The notes beneath the pieces are model-generated. The model saw only the letters and a program-made list of their open reading frames with translations. It had not been told where the DNA came from and did no database searches. Positions 45,542-53,096 of a stretch of 64,000 nt of DNA are shown here, piece after piece. Position numbers and translations under genes: made by a program. The stretch comes from an uncultured Nitrososphaeraceae archaeon. GTDB lineage: Archaea > Thermoproteota > Nitrososphaeria > Nitrososphaerales > Nitrososphaeraceae. The first letter of the stretch is position 1; each line of letters begins with the position of its first letter. Where the stretch lies: NCBI GenBank assembly GCA_963837175.1, contig CAWIMJ010000050.1, positions 160,001 to 224,000 on the forward strand. Reading direction: 5' to 3'.

Positions 45542-46588
45542 ATGTCTTCGCTACTAAAGGATAGAGTATGGGCTATGATTTCTGAAGTTGCAAAAAGGGG
45601 TATCTATCCTCTCCATGGATCGAGACTTGGTGTGTACAGAATACCAATTGATCTTAATGAAAGCGCTGAGATTTCCAGTATTATGACTGATTTAAAAAAT
45701 TCCGGTTTTATTGTAGATGCATATGCAGATAGAATTTATGTAACTTACAAATGGAACGAAAAGGGTACAGATCCTGTTAGTCAGAAAGAACTCTCTACAG
45801 ACTTACATATTACAGTAGAAATAGTTACTGGTGAAGTAGTTGATATAATCTATCAAATAAAGCCTTTAGAATTCTTCGGCGATCTATACTGGGTTAGAAA
45901 TTATAGACAAAAGGCGGATCAAAATGCGAAAATGGTAATTGATACTATAATTACAAACACAAAAATTGGTGGTAGATTAATTGCTCATTATCAGAAGACC
46001 CAAAAGCTTTCCCTTGAAGAAGCCATAAAGAAAGTAGAAGAACTGACTCCCTTAGCAAAGAATCCTAAATTAAGGGCAACTACTTCTGCCTCTCCTTCTC
46101 TTTCACAACAAGCCACCCTGAAATCTCCCTCTTCAACAGCCTCTCCTACTCCTCCTACTTCTACTCCTACGACTATAGCTGCTTCAACAGTAGAAGGTGG
46201 AAGTAGTGGTAGTGGTAACACAACTATTTCTCTTAGCGGTACTGGAACCAACTATTCTAAGGTAGATGGACCTATAGACGCTGGCTTTAAATCAACGAGA
46301 CAACAGGCAGGTACATTCCAAGATATTAAGGTATGGGGCCCTTTAGATCCTCCAGGACAGCTTGGAATATGGGGAAATGAAGTATGTGTCGATTTTGATA
46401 TATGCATAGCAGATGGAGCATGTATTGAGGCCTGTCCAGTGAATGTATATGAATGGCTAGATACTCCAGGACATCCTGCATCGGAAAAGAAACCTTTCAT
46501 GATTAGAGAAAAGGATTGCATATTTTGTATGGCATGTGAGAATGTATGTCCTCCGCAAGCAGTTAAAATATTCCAAAAAAGTCAATAA
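45542..46588 (+). CDS. Unknown N-terminal domain + S/T/P linker + dicluster ferredoxin
   Basis: About 175-aa globular N-domain; C-terminal CIADGAC and CIFCMAC motifs. Confidence 0.9.
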
Positions 46589-46794: not shown

Positions 46795-48957
46795 ATGAGT
46801 GGAATAGGCGCAATTCTTTATTCTTCATTCATTATCATCGCTTGGTTAGTGACCATTTATACGCTTAACTTTTTCTATCTCTCTTATTACTCCCAGCACA
46901 ATTTAAAACATCAAAAAGAAATGAAAAAAAAAATGCAGCCTCTAAATGATGATTCTCTCCCCTTGATAACTATTCAACTTCCTATTTATAACGAAAAGTA
47001 TGTTGCCGTACGCTTAATTGATGCTGTATGTAGAATCGATTATCCAAAAGAAAAGTTGCAAATTCAGGTACTGGATGATTCAGATGATGATACTGATAAA
47101 ATAATTAAATTAACAGTGGATCATTATACATTCAAAGGCTTTGATATAATCTATTTGCATAGAACGGTGAGATCAGGATACAAAGCTGGTGCGTTGAAAG
47201 CAGGTATGAAGATTGCGAAAGGTGAATTTATTGCTATTTTTGATGCGGATTTTATTCCTCCTAATTGGTTTCTGAAAAAAGCAATAGGATCCTTTTCAGA
47301 TTCTAAAGTAGGATTAGTCCAATGCAGATGGGGACACATTAACGAAAATTATTCGTCACTTACCGAAGCACAAGCAATTTCACTTGACTTGCATTTCTTG
47401 ATCGAACAAAAAGCAAAAAGTTTGACTCATTTGTTTATGAACTTTAATGGAACTGCAGGAATCTGGAGGGCTTCTTGTATTAATGATGCTGGAGGTTGGC
47501 ATACAAACACCATTGTAGAAGATCTTGACCTCAGTTATCGGGCCCAGCTTAGAGGTTGGAAGTGCTTCTTTCTAGAGGATCTCGTTATAGATGCAGAGCT
47601 TCCAGTGCAGATCAATGCAGCGAAGCGACAGCAGTTTAGATGGGCAAAAGGTTCCATGCAAGTTGCTAGGAAGCTATTAACTAATGTCGCGTTAGATAGA
47701 CAGATACCTATAGACACCAAGATTCAGGCATTCATACAACTTACTAGACACATTGTTCATCCATTGTTCTTAACTCAATTTATTATTTTTCCTATGTTAC
47801 TTGCATTAGATTATAAATTATATGCTGTAAGTTGGTTTCCCATTACCGGTATTCTAATCTATATTGTTATGGGCCCCGGCGCATACATATATATTATAAG
47901 GAAAATTTGGGGTGATAAATGGAAAGTGAAGGCTCGCCAATACTTTTATTTGATTTTTTTTGCAACAGGAATATCTGTTAACAATACAGTAGCCATTTTA
48001 GAAGCATTGTTGATAAGTAAAAATGAATTCTTACGTACTCCTAAATTTGGAATTATTAAAAAGGACGATGACTGGAAAAATAAATCATATGTGTTACCTT
48101 TTACTAAAACTACTTTATTAGAGATATTTTTTGGGGTCTATGGTACTATTGCGATATTTATTTCTATTTTTTCAGGAAATCCATTATTTGTGCCTGTTCT
48201 CTTTCTTCAAACAATTGGTTTTATTTACATTGCTTACTTAAGCATATCCCACTCTTCATTTAATTACAATAAATCAAATAAAAGATTACAAACTCACAAT
48301 CCGCAGGATCTTTTCATATCAAAGCAATCGTCAAAAATTGTTGATGAGAAAAGTGTCGAATTTACAGAAATGGAAAATACTAAAGTATATATTAACACAA
48401 TAAAAAAAACGAAACACGGCAAGTCAATTATTGAAAATGCTATGACACCTAAATATAATAAACTTATGCTATTCTGTATGTTGGGTTTTTTAGCCTTTGG
48501 TGTAACAGTAGCCTTTTATGGATATGAAACTACGATTTATCCAATGGACAAAGCAGTAGGATATTTATCCCGAGCAGAAGCTGCTCAGTCACCAGAAGCA
48601 GTGGCAGATTACATAAAGCCAGTAAAATATTTGCTTCCAAAGGAGGGAAATCCAGTATGGGTATTTCCAAATCCACGAACAGATTTTGACGCAATTCAAA
48701 ACGAGCTTGATGCAATGCTTTCACGTGCCAATTCAATTTCTTCACTGGAATTAGATAGCGCTGCTTATAATACAGGATTGGCAGATCTGCGCAATTCGAT
48801 TAAAATAATTGAATCTAATTTGATTGAAGCGACTCCTTATCTTTATGTTAGCTCCGTTAATATAGTCCTAAGTGCGATATGGATTGCAATTATTCTTTTT
48901 ATTTTTGCCATCATGAAGAGAGGAAGAGCAAAATTCAAGGAATATGAAAACACATAA
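46795..48957 (+). CDS. GT2 cellulose-synthase-like glycosyltransferase with extra C-terminal membrane-anchored domain
   Basis: QLPIYNE, KAGAL, FDADF, VEDLD, QQFRW; multiple TM helices. Confidence 0.92.
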   Translation: MSGIGAILYSSFIIIAWLVTIYTLNFFYLSYYSQHNLKHQKEMKKKMQPLNDDSLPLITIQLPIYNEKYVAVRLIDAVCRIDYPKEKLQIQVLDDSDDDTDKIIKLTVDHYTFKGFDIIYLHRTVRSGYKAGALKAGMKIAKGEFIAIFDADFIPPNWFLKKAIGSFSDSKVGLVQCRWGHINENYSSLTEAQAISLDLHFLIEQKAKSLTHLFMNFNGTAGIWRASCINDAGGWHTNTIVEDLDLSYRAQLRGWKCFFLEDLVIDAELPVQINAAKRQQFRWAKGSMQVARKLLTNVALDRQIPIDTKIQAFIQLTRHIVHPLFLTQFIIFPMLLALDYKLYAVSWFPITGILIYIVMGPGAYIYIIRKIWGDKWKVKARQYFYLIFFATGISVNNTVAILEALLISKNEFLRTPKFGIIKKDDDWKNKSYVLPFTKTTLLEIFFGVYGTIAIFISIFSGNPLFVPVLFLQTIGFIYIAYLSISHSSFNYNKSNKRLQTHNPQDLFISKQSSKIVDEKSVEFTEMENTKVYINTIKKTKHGKSIIENAMTPKYNKLMLFCMLGFLAFGVTVAFYGYETTIYPMDKAVGYLSRAEAAQSPEAVADYIKPVKYLLPKEGNPVWVFPNPRTDFDAIQNELDAMLSRANSISSLELDSAAYNTGLADLRNSIKIIESNLIEATPYLYVSSVNIVLSAIWIAIILFIFAIMKRGRAKFKEYENT

Positions 48958-49285
48958 GAGGTCTCTTGCTATTAGGAGAGTTACACTTGTATCACTCCGT
49001 CATAGAATGGTGTAATTGTAACCTATAATACAATAGATATAAGACACTCTAGTTATTGTTCTTTTATCGGTACAACTAACTAGTAAAGTAGAAAAAGATC
49101 TTTGATATCAAAAGGATTTGGTCAGTTACCCTAGTGCTTTCATCATAATTTCAGAAGGAGTAATCATCATCCCATATTATTGTAGATTATATCATTATTC
49201 ATTCTTTCGGGGTCCAACTACTTTAACAAAACATGTGGAAAGGTATTACGCTTAGATTTATATAATAATTTTTGAATTTTATCAC

Positions 49286-49927
49286 ATGTCAGCAGAGCAA
49301 CAAATTGTCGAACGAATAACTTCTGCGGGAACAGCAGGGATAAAAAAAATAGACCTGCGTAAAGAATTTCAAGATATGGAAATTGATGTTGTCATAGAAG
49401 GCCTTGTAACGTCTGGAGATATATTGGTTGATAAGAAAGGTACAGCATACTACTGTTGGCATAAAGATCATTATCTTCAAAATCTGTTAAATACAGACCC
49501 AAAATTTCGATTAATTTATGAGAGCATTATGCATCTTGAGATGTCTGTTAATAAAACATCTGATGGTCTAGCGAAAACCCTCGAAACACTCTACAATAAT
49601 GTTAAGAATTCTCAAAAATCTCCTGCAACAAAAAATCTAGATGGCATATCACATGTAAATATTAATGACGAACCAACCATGAAATTAGACAGATTCAGAA
49701 ATGAATTTGATTTAGCTATTGGAAATAATTCTAGTTCAATTGGTTGGGTAGAACTGTCAAAAGTCCGAAACGAGTTATGCAAAAAGTATAATATATCAAA
49801 TGAAGATTTCTATAGTTTTGTTGAACAATTAACAAATCTATACCACGATAAATATGAATTATCCACAGGTGGATATGAGGGATTGACTGTTAGAGGCCTA
49901 CTTCATGGATTTGTGAGGTGTATATAG
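49286..49927 (+). CDS. Hypothetical wHTH-coiled coil-wHTH protein
   Basis: N- and C-terminal helix-helix-helix-beta-hairpin patterns separated by a heptad helix. Confidence 0.8.
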   Translation: MSAEQQIVERITSAGTAGIKKIDLRKEFQDMEIDVVIEGLVTSGDILVDKKGTAYYCWHKDHYLQNLLNTDPKFRLIYESIMHLEMSVNKTSDGLAKTLETLYNNVKNSQKSPATKNLDGISHVNINDEPTMKLDRFRNEFDLAIGNNSSSIGWVELSKVRNELCKKYNISNEDFYSFVEQLTNLYHDKYELSTGGYEGLTVRGLLHGFVRCI

Positions 49928-51562
49928 GTGTATCCGTATGGTCTCACACAAAATCCATATCCTAGTAGTCCTACTCCGACGCTTATAGATGCTCAAGTTT
50001 TAGGCGGAAGAAGGCATAAGGAAGCAAAGAAGGCTGTGTTATCATGCATTGAGGATTTGAATTCTAAAGTTAGTGATATCGCAACTGACAGAGACTTTCG
50101 TTTAGTTACTCTTATTCAAGATGTTGGATCTGGCAAGACACACTTAGCCTTGCATATTAGAGCATTAAAGGAGATTTGCAATAATGCTGTTATATCATAC
50201 GTTGATCTGTCCCAAGTGTTTCCGCGTGACATGGATAATATATATGCTGCACTGTTAAGCGGTTTTGATAAAGAATATATCGATAGCCTGAGAAAAGCCA
50301 TTGTTTATTATCTTAGAGACAAGGCAGAACGGAATAACAAGCAAGCAAAGAAAATTTTCAAACTTGGATTTATTGATTTTCTCACTAAGAAAAATTTCTC
50401 TATTAAGGCACAACAGATTTTAGATGGGAGAATGGTTCCAGATTACTTTGCGATAGATCAGGTGTTAACAACAGAATTCTCAGTAGTTGAGGCCTCGGTT
50501 ATGAAATTAATAATAGAAGGTAAATTTGGAGATCATGCAGGGAATATCAAAAGCATGGAACATATTATTACCAAGATATCAGCAATCGCTAACCTAAATC
50601 TAAAATTTTTAAAGAAATTGACTATCCTTCAAATTGATGAATTTGACTCTGATAAAAAGTCACTAGAAGTTGTTAAGGCAATCATTAATTCCCACTTGCC
50701 ATCAACTGTATTGATGTTGATTTTAACACCTTCTTCATATGACGAGATACGAAAAGAAGATAATGCTACTTTCGATAGGTTAGAAAAGGCAAACTACAAA
50801 ATCGATTTAGCAGGTTCAAACACATTGGAAGAGATACTGGATATCATTCTAGAATATGTAAGATATTACGATCTTCAAAAAAGTTTTAAATTAGAAGATG
50901 AAACCGATCTTTCCGCAAAGATTAAAGTAATTTATGATGAATTCCCTGATTTTAGAAACGTTAGATCAATGACTAATATTTTATACAACGCAACCGAAAA
51001 TGCTGCAAAAAGAGACGCTCCAATTATTGACGAAAAAGCAATAGATGATACAATCAAAAGCACACATCCAGGGCTGCGAATTAGAGGAAGTATAATGGGT
51101 GTGCCACTTTCTGATTTTATAAAAATCAGAAACAGCTCTAATGATATTCAAATGCTGGAATCTAACGTTCGTGATGCAGTAAAAAACCTCCTAAACCATG
51201 CGCATGACATGGGAAGTGTAGCTAAATTTGAATCTACTAACGGAGTAGATACTGGAATTGATGTAATTTATAACGACCCAGCTGGAACTAAAGTGGCTGT
51301 TGCTGTTGTAATAAACAAAGATCATACAAAGAGTTTTGATCAGATATCTAATACGGTAAAATCTATTGGTTTTGCGGATAAACTTCTAGTTTTAACTAAT
51401 GCAAAAACTGATAGTGGAACTGACGGAATGACAGTGGTTAACATCGACAGATGCAAAATGACAGACCTAATTTACTTTAGTAGTAAATACAAAAATAACG
51501 AAATATTACATGATGACTTGCAACGTGCTTTACTGCTAGCAAAATCAATTAAACTTTGTTGA
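49928..51562 (+). CDS. AAA+-type P-loop NTPase with C-terminal degenerate nuclease-like domain
   Basis: QDVGSGKT Walker A, ILQIDEFD Walker B, FDRL, NVR; C-terminal IDVIY..KVAVAV..ADKLLVLT. Confidence 0.85.
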   Translation: MYPYGLTQNPYPSSPTPTLIDAQVLGGRRHKEAKKAVLSCIEDLNSKVSDIATDRDFRLVTLIQDVGSGKTHLALHIRALKEICNNAVISYVDLSQVFPRDMDNIYAALLSGFDKEYIDSLRKAIVYYLRDKAERNNKQAKKIFKLGFIDFLTKKNFSIKAQQILDGRMVPDYFAIDQVLTTEFSVVEASVMKLIIEGKFGDHAGNIKSMEHIITKISAIANLNLKFLKKLTILQIDEFDSDKKSLEVVKAIINSHLPSTVLMLILTPSSYDEIRKEDNATFDRLEKANYKIDLAGSNTLEEILDIILEYVRYYDLQKSFKLEDETDLSAKIKVIYDEFPDFRNVRSMTNILYNATENAAKRDAPIIDEKAIDDTIKSTHPGLRIRGSIMGVPLSDFIKIRNSSNDIQMLESNVRDAVKNLLNHAHDMGSVAKFESTNGVDTGIDVIYNDPAGTKVAVAVVINKDHTKSFDQISNTVKSIGFADKLLVLTNAKTDSGTDGMTVVNIDRCKMTDLIYFSSKYKNNEILHDDLQRALLLAKSIKLC

Positions 51563-51599
51563 TCATATAATTATAACGTGGCATTACTTTTTAGGTCTA

Positions 51600-52240
51600 C
51601 CTTCGCTTAATAACATAGTGTGTAATCATTCTGTTATGCAGATCAATAAACATATTAACCAATTGAGGATGTGCTCTGGATAGCAGGAGCTCCTTTAATT
51701 TTTACAATGGAAATAATCATCAAAACTTTCTGTTCTATCATTAACATACTGAATGTTATCAATGAGACTTTATTCCATAAGGTAAATGAATATGATGTTT
51801 AGTTTGAGGAATTTACTGGCTTGAGGATACTAGTATCATCACCATCCTCAGCAGAAACAGGATTTTTTCCATTTTTCTTTCATACTAATGATCGTATAAA
51901 ATGCTCTGCAATAGGTATACTCCCTTCATATGATATCTACGTATTCCAAGAATTGTCTTGTCTGTTGGTTCAGTTGCAGTCCATAACCAAACGATACCTC
52001 TATTATTTTAATGAGTAATCGGAGTTTTATCATCAACTATAAATTCATAAATTCTTCTTTTCCTATGGAATGTCTTTTCTGGCTTGTAGCGCTGTTGAAT
52101 TCATTTCCAAATGGAAACATAGTTTCTTCTTAGCTATGGAGATAAATGCTGGGATGTCTTTCTTAGAGATGCACCACCTGAAAAATACAACTGTAATGAA
52201 TAGAAGATATACTTTGAAGATATTTACTTCTCTTATCCTT
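51600..52240 (-). mobile_element. IS6-family transposase relic
   Basis: Broken frames give LYFSG.SLRKTS, RRNYVSIW, FIVD, GKNPVS.DG, YPQA.KFLKL, DRTESFDDYF.C. Confidence 0.8.
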
Positions 52241-52276
52241 GCTCTTGAGAAATAGAATATCTTTAGCTATAGGTTT

Positions 52277-52609: not shown

Positions 52610-52643
52610 CAGCTCTGCAGGATAATTGCACTACATAAATAGT

Positions 52644-53096
52644 ATGGGAAAAAATAGATCATTTAAGACTCTTGAGGACTTTCTAAATAATTTGCATAAA
52701 GAAGGGATCTCTCTGATGGATTTCAATGGCCAAAAGATCCCTTGTATCCTTATAAATCCAACTAGATTTCAAGAACTAGTAGGAACGGTTTATGGGAAAA
52801 AATTAGCAGTCGATACTTTGCTAAATGTATTCCATGATAGCCAAGATGTTTTTGTAGATGTTACACTGAATTTCCTGGATATAGGTATTGAAGAAAATTA
52901 TCTTCTATATGCAAACGATATATTAGAATTCTTTGAATCTTTAACGAAAACAGGAATAATTGGCATAGTTCCAGCTGATTCTTATCTTAGAAATAATTCA
53001 AATATCTTTATGATACAGCTTCCTAAAAAGGAGGCAGCAGAAAAAGCACTTGGAATAATCAAAGCTAATGCTAAAAACACAAGGAAATACATTTGA
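52644..53096 (+). CDS. Hypothetical protein
   Basis: ATG at 52644, 150 aa, co-oriented with the previous gene. Confidence 0.75.
   Translation: MGKNRSFKTLEDFLNNLHKEGISLMDFNGQKIPCILINPTRFQELVGTVYGKKLAVDTLLNVFHDSQDVFVDVTLNFLDIGIEENYLLYANDILEFFESLTKTGIIGIVPADSYLRNNSNIFMIQLPKKEAAEKALGIIKANAKNTRKYI

Follow-up and report, generated by a model that had tools for sequence, protein, structure and literature searches.

We analysed a window of 64,000 nucleotides (nt) from an uncultured Nitrososphaeraceae archaeon (the whole stretch from position 160,001 to 224,000 of contig CAWIMJ010000050.1, assembly GCA_963837175.1). At positions 49286-51562 it carries two adjoining genes on the forward strand. The first, gene B, encodes a partner protein predicted to have a winged helix at either end, and the second, gene A, encodes a protein that we assign to the AAA+ ATPases and whose C-terminal part resembles a nuclease domain devoid of its catalytic residues. 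The features of the two genes, given in amino acid (aa) residues where they concern the proteins, are as follows; the domains of B are those of an AlphaFold2 (AF2) model.

49257-49265, forward strand: TATA-like box (TTTATATAA), about 25 nt before the ATG of B
49286-49927, forward strand: gene B, the partner (open reading frame with ATG start, 213 aa)
49292-49462, forward strand: N-terminal winged helix of B (residues 3-59)
49463-49615, forward strand: long helix of B (residues 60-110)
residues 112-130 of B, forward strand: linker, modelled with low confidence
49685-49903, forward strand: C-terminal winged helix of B (residues 134-206)
49915-49920, forward strand: Shine-Dalgarno-like GAGGTG, within the end of gene B and 7 nt before the GTG of A
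49928-51562, forward strand: gene A, the ATPase (open reading frame with GTG start, 544 aa)
50117-50140, forward strand: Walker A motif QDVGSGKT (A residues 64-71; sequence and alignment)
50231-50611, forward strand: helical insertion (A residues 102-228; AF2 secondary structure, charge and alignment)
50624-50647, forward strand: Walker B motif ILQIDEFD (A residues 233-240; D237/E238 invariant or nearly so)
50771-50782, forward strand: FDRL (A residues 282-285; R284 a probable arginine finger)
50957-50965, forward strand: NVR (A residues 344-346; R346 a probable sensor 2)
51095-51559, forward strand: C-terminal alpha/beta domain (A residues 390-544; homologous to the Mrr-type PD-(D/E)xK domain)

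The two genes meet without a gap. The stop codon of B (TAG, 49925-49927) directly abuts the start codon of A (GTG, 49928-49930), and the GAGGTG inside the end of B would function as the ribosome site for A. A preliminary description of this DNA had reported both this junction and the motifs of A, and each of these elements was found in the sequence where it had been placed. B and A share one reading frame, so that the single TAG is their sole separation, and the closest relative, in genome G003, has the same in-frame layout. We considered a B-A fusion made by read-through of the TAG and rejected it, because most other genomes have B and A in different frames with an overlap of 4 or 10 nt; that they share a frame here therefore looks incidental. 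Upstream of B, the TATA-like box stands at the usual archaeal TATA-to-start spacing, on which we base its designation as a putative promoter element, and it would yield a leaderless or very-short-leader mRNA. The upstream spacer of the pair holds no repeats of note. A scan for bacterial-type promoters and terminators, which is unsuited to archaea, remained at chance level with 15 found against 16.8 expected.

Domain architecture of the ATPase and its partner

The AF2 model of A, built from a 29-row alignment, reached a predicted local distance difference test (pLDDT) score of 88.1 and a predicted template modelling (pTM) score of 0.78. In this model the P-loop follows strand 57-63, and D237/E238 end strand 231-237. 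Judged by their positions, R284 at the end of helix 279-286 and before strand 290-293 is a probable arginine finger, and R346 at the start of the lid helix 345-361 is a probable sensor 2. Residues G69, K70, T71, D237, E238 and R284 are invariant in a 17-row wide alignment that reaches down to 18% identity, and an NPYP motif occupies residues 9-12. Modelled strand order and motifs together fit an active AAA+ ATPase, with its catalytic residues K70/T71, D237/E238, R284 and R346 all intact. The first Gly of the Walker A motif is replaced by Gln in 23 of the 24 rows of the Nitrososphaerales clade, the exception being P0131, which has Gly; relatives outside this clade have the canonical Gly. In the model, an insert of nine helices with an isoelectric point (pI) of 9.2 separates strand 2 (87-93) from the Walker B strand (231-237), where AAA+ proteins of the ORC/Cdc6/DnaA type have their initiator-specific helical insert. 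In the alignment this helical expansion, residues 102-228, is missing from short relatives of 444-458 aa. According to passages of PMC12839542, ORC/Cdc6-clade ATPases bear a helical insert at the same place.

We then compared the model of A with 48,161 representative chains by VIA-align, in which the matches span residues 1-384. Archaeal Orc1/Cdc6 scored highest (2qby_B, 19.0, with a root-mean-square deviation of 3.5 A over 258 aligned residues; 1w5s_A, 18.9), followed by eukaryotic Cdc6/ORC subunits (17-18), MuB (16.8), BrxC (15.8), TnsC (15.7) and DnaA (15.1). Foldseek matched A to HslU, ORC/Cdc6 and BrxC at E values of 8e-6 to 5e-4. The model-based assignment of A to the AAA+ ATPases of the ORC/Cdc6 (initiator- or STAND-like) clade is thus well supported, and model, fold searches and alignment agree with the preliminary description of an AAA+ ATPase with a variant Walker A motif and a large helical insert.

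The C-terminal domain of A is modelled with the order alpha(407-427), beta(433-436), beta(446-449), beta(455-461), alpha(466-478), beta(485-490), followed by one more strand and two helices. This alpha-beta-beta-beta-alpha-beta succession is, as far as the model goes, that of the PD-(D/E)xK core. The motifs of the tail are GIDVIY (443-448), VAVAVVINK (456-464) and DKLLVLTN (484-491). The Asp before strand 2, D445 (51260-51262), is retained in the window and in most of 39 aligned rows, and the position of (D/E)xK reads A459-V460-V461 (51302-51310) in the window. Eight of the 39 rows have D...(D/E)xK (P0141, L037, L036, L038, P0204, P0207, P0168 and P0180) and two have NxK; in the other 29, which include all 24 rows of the Nitrososphaerales clade, the motif is lost.

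The link to the Mrr family runs via one of the motif-bearing homologues, as we found no Pfam match over the C-terminal domain of the window protein itself. L036, a distant full-length homologue of 614 aa, passes Pfam Mrr_cat (PF04471; E 8e-6, 26.4 bits, cut-off 21), just reaches Mrr_cat_2 (22.0 bits, cut-off 22) and weakly matches NA-iREase1; another homologue, P0180, has a weak AHJR-like Pfam match. When only the C-terminal domains were compared by hhalign, the window clade matched the distant clade that holds L036 with 96.1% probability (E 3.4e-9, 145 columns), and the remaining two pairings gave 98.8% and 99.4%. A look-up of the domain in the ESM Atlas gave a best score of 0.79 and no named family. 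In a quick maximum-likelihood tree of the ATPases, with an arbitrary root and several long branches, the Nitrososphaerales clade is one branch (SH-aLRT 100) with a long stem, and all motif-bearing rows lie outside it. Since (D/E)xK is the catalytic signature of the wider Mrr family, the simplest explanation is that it was lost on this clade's stem. The Mrr_cat homologue, the motif table and the hhalign comparisons support the conclusion that the tail of A is a dead Mrr-type nuclease domain, and the earlier view of a restriction-endonuclease-like tail short of D/E-x-K fits the same three results.

The AF2 model of B (23 rows) reached a pLDDT of 79.6. It shows the two winged-helix ends that had been proposed from the sequence, with a long helix and the low-confidence linker in the middle. 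The best-conserved part of B is the C-terminal winged helix, with 19 invariant columns over residues 141-211 and, in alignment A2, a near-invariant YELSxGGxEGxxVRGxxHGxxR wing. VIA-align matched this domain to SAMD1 (8.7), Rpa2 (8.4), the MCM C-terminus (8.4) and Cdt1 (8.1), and Foldseek gave weak tandem winged-helix matches of B to RPC34/RPC6 (8iue_P, E 2.4e-4), TFIIIC and ScpB (E 0.016). An ESM Atlas look-up of the same domain gave a best score of 0.90, probably its own cluster, and no named family. Across relatives the length of B is 162-419 aa, with 176 aa in one family. In family f9 (L018:5323-6540 and L023:6639-7898) the partner has 405-419 aa, with about 200 extra coiled-coil-like residues between the winged helices that attract apolipoprotein-type Pfam matches. 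The spacer between the two ends of B therefore varies freely, about fourfold.

Linkage, distribution and surroundings of the pair

To assess how constantly the two genes occur together, we surveyed their neighbourhoods. A homologue of B lies directly upstream of A on the same strand in 37 of 41 A-bearing loci (38 genomes), at a spacing of -29 to +6 nt by longest open reading frames; the conserved linkage on which the preliminary description of a coupled pair depends is thus borne out. One of the four exceptions is a locus at a contig end, where a B fragment is present, and another is the divergent ATPase L020, which has no partner. The remaining two, L034 and L039 of family f25, have an upstream open reading frame that the A2 partner profile missed. 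In L034 this frame encodes 169 aa and is 57% identical to the partner at L040, which the profile detects. Profile A2 also matches profile A4, built from distant partners, over the C-terminal winged helix (90.8% probability, E 1.2e-6), and the two-gene linkage therefore holds across very distant relatives. The ATPase at L020:3681-5351 (family f12) shows 28% identity, has a canonical Walker A motif and reads NVK in place of ExK; no partner gene was found nearby with the A2 profile, and the genes upstream of it are on the other strand.

Among 61 genomes, namely that of the window itself and others from its genus, family and order, A was found in 42 and B in 41. Within the same family each gene was found in 35 of 36 genomes, mostly as one match per genome, and the sole genome without them is 72% complete. 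Both genes occur in families f4, f9 and f13, A occurs without B in f12, and neither was found in 15 other families of the order. Over the phylum, the ATPase profile matched 41 of 401 sampled genomes, and full-length matches were confined to this order and G321. In another lineage, family f25 (15 of 17 genomes), and in a few others, proteins about 600 aa long match its N-terminal part, and some of them the C-terminal part as well. The ATPase tree roughly tracks the family labels. These patterns indicate that the pair is a vertically inherited two-gene module of the Nitrososphaerales, which are soil and freshwater ammonia oxidisers.

Two genomes of the survey carry more than one relative. G138 encodes an approximately 616-aa relative on contig C22 and a short 458-aa relative at L038:4733-7292; the short one has an intact D...DVK motif and its own 201-aa partner, and the pair lies between arginyl-tRNA synthetase-like and triosephosphate isomerase-like genes, named by eye. 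G021, a 5-Mb assembly that is 81% complete, has two copies of the pair on contigs C35 and C48, and both ATPase genes are broken by frame changes and one TAG each. This double copy may reflect a mixed assembly or real pseudogenes.

Around the pair, the order conserved in the family is a GT2 glycosyltransferase (10 of 21 loci), B, A, c4 (7 of 21) and c2 (15 of 21). In two other families the gene after A encodes a HAD-like hydrolase instead. Downstream of A the window contains the following features.

51563-52276, reverse strand: degraded IS6-family (IS240-type DDE) element, recognised by its copies and their overlap with PF13610
52277-52609, forward strand: c4, open reading frame for a small Cys-rich protein of 110 aa, conserved downstream
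52626-53096, forward strand: c2, 156-aa protein, conserved downstream

c2 is present in 34 of 36 genomes of the same family, mostly adjacent to the pair, and no Pfam family was found for c2 or c4. The two may be accessory to the pair, or their position may be plain synteny. Other neighbours within about 13 kb are an aconitase-family protein, an F420 ligase, a rhodanese, a ferredoxin, the GT2 protein, an RsmB-type methyltransferase, a NIP7-like PUA protein and a tRNA-Gly. Except for one decayed insertion sequence (IS), we found no defence or mobile genes in this range. In a 348-aa protein encoded at 45542-46588, an uncharacterised N-terminal domain is followed by a long low-complexity stretch rich in Ser, Thr and Pro and then, at the C-terminus, by a 2x[4Fe-4S] ferredoxin domain.

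The decayed element fills the spacer 51563-52276, which has 42 other copies in the genome at 65-94% identity over the matched parts (65-74% for the long ones). Several of these copies coincide with DDE_Tnp_IS240 (PF13610) matches on the opposite strand, and the IS6 relic that had been noted downstream of A is confirmed by these overlaps. For the window copy itself, PF13610 finds nothing at E up to 1. The genome as a whole has 29 PF13610 matches, many with internal stops, and together with the copies they point to a large expansion of IS6 elements long ago. The relic in the window is lineage-specific: sister genomes have c4 immediately after A, and therefore the element was inserted between A and c4.

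The stretch is also present in RNA libraries. It occurs in 24 soil metatranscriptome runs from 23 studies, and 18 of these runs contain half or more of the sampled words. In three of four runs examined, contigs bridge the B-A junction (X1, 49303-50863; X2, 49795-50895; X3, 49299-50618). The contigs of the four runs begin at 49299-49309 and end at 51576-51686, and none covers 48885-49238 or 51717-52247; these ends are at most a weak hint of the transcript ends.

Comparison with known families and systems

The preliminary description had taken the pair for an uncharacterised system, and scans of Pfam, NCBIfam and PADLOC gave no full-length match to a characterised family. The best Pfam match of A is AAA_22, which at E 0.019 and 15.7 bits stays below the cut-off of 27, and Pfam gave nothing meaningful for B. 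NCBIfam gave nothing relevant for either protein, and no family of PADLOC-DB 2.0 matches A or B at E up to 1. Distant relatives have weak PADLOC matches over the AAA region only, to mad8 (E 1.6e-7 to 3.5e-3), BrxD and PtuA, and sub-threshold matches to ATPase_2 (PF01637; at best E 8.9e-6 and 26.1 bits, cut-off 33.2). A profile search of the sequences of solved structures returned P-loop matches only (RecA, myosin) for A and coiled-coil noise for B. A phmmer scan of 1.84 billion representative proteins yielded 87 matches with E no higher than 0.001. About 15 of these are full-length, and the sequence family is therefore narrow. Wherever a name is given, its members are called 'hypothetical protein' in their sources, once 'ATP-binding protein', and the organisms named for them are Nitrososphaeraceae, Nitrososphaera, Nitrosocosmicus, Nitrosopumilaceae and Thermoproteota. 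A word-indexed search with the broad alignment A3 found close relatives only, all labelled hypothetical. Literature searches on Orc/Cdc6-like AAA+ proteins, Mrr and inactive restriction endonucleases in archaea, and passages of PMC12839542, PMC12065111 and PMC4158269, yielded no description of the pair, supplements aside.

Orc1/Cdc6 is the closest of the known families in fold. Like the solved structures 2qby_B, 1w5s_A and 1fnn, A has the AAA+ base and lid of the initiator clade and a helical insert after strand 2. However, the insert has about 125 aa in A and is a short helix pair in Orc1/Cdc6. In place of the C-terminal winged helix of Orc1/Cdc6 (Cdc6_C, PF09079), residues 390-544 of A are modelled as alpha/beta, and the winged helices reside here in a separate partner protein. 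Cdc6_C is not among the 25 Pfam families listed for 29 members, and none of these passes a Cdc6/ORC model. Because A has no Cdc6 winged helix and passes no such model, it is not a member of Orc1/Cdc6. The one canonical Orc1/Cdc6 of the genome, its only PF09079 match, is encoded on contig C43, away from the pair.

The tail of A is homologous to the domain of Mrr-type nucleases (PF04471, PF13156) and of inactive restriction-nuclease sensors in NTPases (such as PF22722, NA-iREase1) and keeps the first catalytic Asp. In the window A-V-V stands where active Mrr-type nucleases have (D/E)xK, and the tail is joined to an ORC-like AAA+ module and not to a DNA-recognition domain. BrxC and BrxD of BREX are also ORC/Cdc6-clade AAA+ proteins, but A has 544 aa and BrxC 1200-1300 residues, as given in a passage of PMC12839542; no PglZ, methyltransferase or other BREX gene was found near the pair. 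In McrBC an AAA+ GTPase of the McrB type has the nuclease McrC as its partner, where A has a double winged-helix one, and no PADLOC or Pfam matches to McrB or McrC were found. The preliminary statement that the pair matches none of the known systems thus stands for membership in Orc1/Cdc6, McrBC and BREX, while A still falls within the ORC/Cdc6 clade.

MuB and TnsC, of the AAA_22 type, are linked to transposases, whereas A has the extra insert, a nuclease-derived domain and vertical inheritance; no transposase was found conserved beside the pair in 21 neighbourhoods. A fused arCOG-type family contains the same three blocks as the pair, namely AAA+, helix-turn-helix and a nuclease of the PD-(D/E)xK superfamily. 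It differs in that here the winged helices are encoded by a gene of their own, the Mrr-like nuclease is inactive and the genes belong to the core and not to islands. The Pfam model related to that family is ATPase_2, whose matches in distant relatives stay below the cut-off. With the tandem winged-helix adaptors RPC34/RPC6, ScpB and Cdt1, B has in common its two winged helices; it has no sequence similarity to them, its domains are split by a helix of variable length, and the structural matches are at a generic level. The building blocks of the pair and their general combination are already known.

Possible roles of the pair

The architecture is well supported: A is an AAA+ ATPase of the ORC/Cdc6 clade in which the active site is intact, the basic insert enlarged and the Mrr-like domain disarmed, and its winged-helix partner is encoded beside it. 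What was observed comprises the structure of the genes, their folds and motif states, the phyletic pattern, the synteny and the occurrence in RNA libraries; that A oligomerises and contacts B, and what the pair does in the cell, is inference. We estimate at roughly 50% the probability that the pair is an ATP-dependent, oligomerising, DNA-associated switch that derives from a restriction-like ancestor and now serves the host chromosome. On binding ATP, A would oligomerise on DNA via its arginine finger, gripping the DNA through the helical insert and the non-cutting Mrr-like domain; the enlarged basic insert would sit where initiator proteins touch DNA. B would bridge or target the assembly, most likely by docking its conserved C-terminal winged helix on the ATPase, and hydrolysis of ATP would reset it. 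The (D/E)xK signature would have been lost on the clade stem from a restriction-like AAA+ nuclease ancestor, and the role on the host chromosome would be one of maintenance, organisation or replication-linked control and not of mobile defence. The phyletic pattern counts against mobile defence and for a host function that was lost in some lineages, and the switch is therefore favoured. The preliminary description had left defence, chromosome organisation or segregation and replication control side by side as functions of an ATP-driven DNA machine. Of these, mobile defence is now the least supported, given the presence, mostly in single copy, in 35 of 36 sampled genomes of the family, the synteny, the housekeeping neighbours and the absence of PADLOC matches; the preliminary interpretation as a whole is partly supported.

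Several observations weigh against the switch. DNA binding by A or by B is itself something we infer. B is acidic overall (pI 5.7) with recognition helices that are not basic, and its winged helices may therefore bind protein instead of DNA. The fold matches listed for A stop at residue 384, short of the C-terminal domain, and some relatives have kept D...(D/E)xK intact, among them the one at L038, which adjoins a 106-aa open reading frame that by eye resembles an N-terminal integrase fragment. The predicted A-B complex is a weak pass. Its score of 0.55, against 0.00 for the best of three controls, is graded by the tool as 'weak support'. Of 80 solved complexes 58 reached the mark, as did 2 of 110 mismatched pairs; only 7 of the 80 solved complexes, but both passing mismatches, were at 0.60 or under. 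The runs agreed in at least 94% of contacts, with a partner pLDDT of at least 74. In the sister family f13 the gene is held by 11 of 56 sampled genomes, in genera g30 (7/7), g52 (3/3) and g46 (1/1), and by none in g40 (0/23) and g42 (0/7), despite genomes that are about 99% complete; some ammonia oxidisers can do without the pair. DNA may be present in RNA libraries, and the contigs that bridge the junction cannot prove a single transcript. Finally, ORC/Cdc6-clade ATPases and inactive nuclease domains are common in defence systems, as passages of PMC12839542 point out.

This last point leads to a fixed immune or surveillance system, in which the dead Mrr-like domain and the winged helices would sense foreign or modified DNA, the AAA+ module would assemble on the sensed DNA, and an effector encoded elsewhere, perhaps c4 and c2, would do the damage. 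Parts of PMC12839542 and PMC12065111 describe inactive restriction nucleases that, paired with NTPases, act as immunity sensors. The D...(D/E)xK of distant relatives, one of which passes Mrr_cat, would fit such an origin, as would their weak AAA-only matches to mad8, BrxD and PtuA and the failure to find the pair in several genera of the order. However, the window proteins themselves have no PADLOC match, and no effector domain was identified in the Nitrososphaerales clade. A gene that is present, mostly in single copy and in conserved synteny, in nearly every sampled genome of the family, with no defence or mobile genes within about 13 kb except the decayed IS and with a tree that roughly follows the family labels, does not look like an immune gene either. 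We regard an immune function as unlikely, if the least unlikely of the alternatives.

The pair could instead be a second, lineage-specific replication or partition factor, in which A would load or mark, like Cdc6, and B would be a double winged-helix adaptor similar to Cdt1 or WhiP, at the origin or another chromosomal site. Structurally, A matches Orc1/Cdc6 and the Cdc6 of ORC complexes best, and the pair is vertically inherited. The winged-helix matches of B are generic, however, with Z scores at a level that the tool calls common; the canonical Orc1/Cdc6 is on another contig and no replication gene was found linked to the pair. Since none of the 23 g40 genomes sampled yielded the pair, it cannot be a general requirement. 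We consider such a factor rather improbable. The same holds for a more far-reaching version of events, in which a restriction-type AAA+ module was captured and disarmed in the ancestor of the Nitrososphaerales and turned into a Cdc6/Cdt1-like chromosome factor, marking or loading something on the host chromosome in, for instance, a second licensing, partition or compaction step, that terrestrial lineages kept and streamlined marine ones lost; we offer it as a speculation of low probability.

Somewhat less probable again is an ATPase like ExeA or the STAND switches, with a task in regulation or assembly, that would act on proteins or the envelope in connection with the neighbouring glycosyltransferase, and not on DNA. 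The acidity of B and the GT2 gene that immediately precedes the pair on its strand in 10 of 21 loci agree with it, as does the best Pfam similarity of A, which is to merely generic AAA_22, AAA_16 and NACHT-like models. The N-terminal Y-x-Y-G-L-x-x-N-P-F of A presumably resembles that of ExeA-type AAA_22 ATPases. Yet the C-terminal domain of A seems to derive from a DNA nuclease, its closest folds are all DNA-loading or DNA-bound AAA+ proteins, and the linkage to the glycosyltransferase is missing in more distant loci. That the pair is a domesticated remnant of a target-selection module of TnsC/MuB/TniB-type transposons is very improbable, with a linked transposase in none of 41 loci, vertical inheritance, and sister genomes in which c4 directly follows A and the IS relic is not present here.

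The novelty of the pair lies in this particular division of the architecture over two proteins, in its being disarmed and in its having become fixed in nearly every genome sampled from a major family of soil nitrifiers. In many soils the dominant ammonia oxidisers belong to this family, the Nitrososphaeraceae, and to our knowledge their DNA transactions are almost unstudied. Going by source names, cultured Nitrososphaera strains hold an orthologue of about 67% identity, and the function of the pair is therefore directly testable. The pair illustrates the recombination of ORC-like ATPases with winged-helix partners, and it offers a case of disarming in which a restriction-like AAA+ nuclease apparently lost its catalytic residues and was kept as a vertically inherited gene. 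If it serves immunity, it would be a defence gene fixed to an unusual degree. If its role is chromosomal, the pair would be a new player in archaeal chromosome biology.

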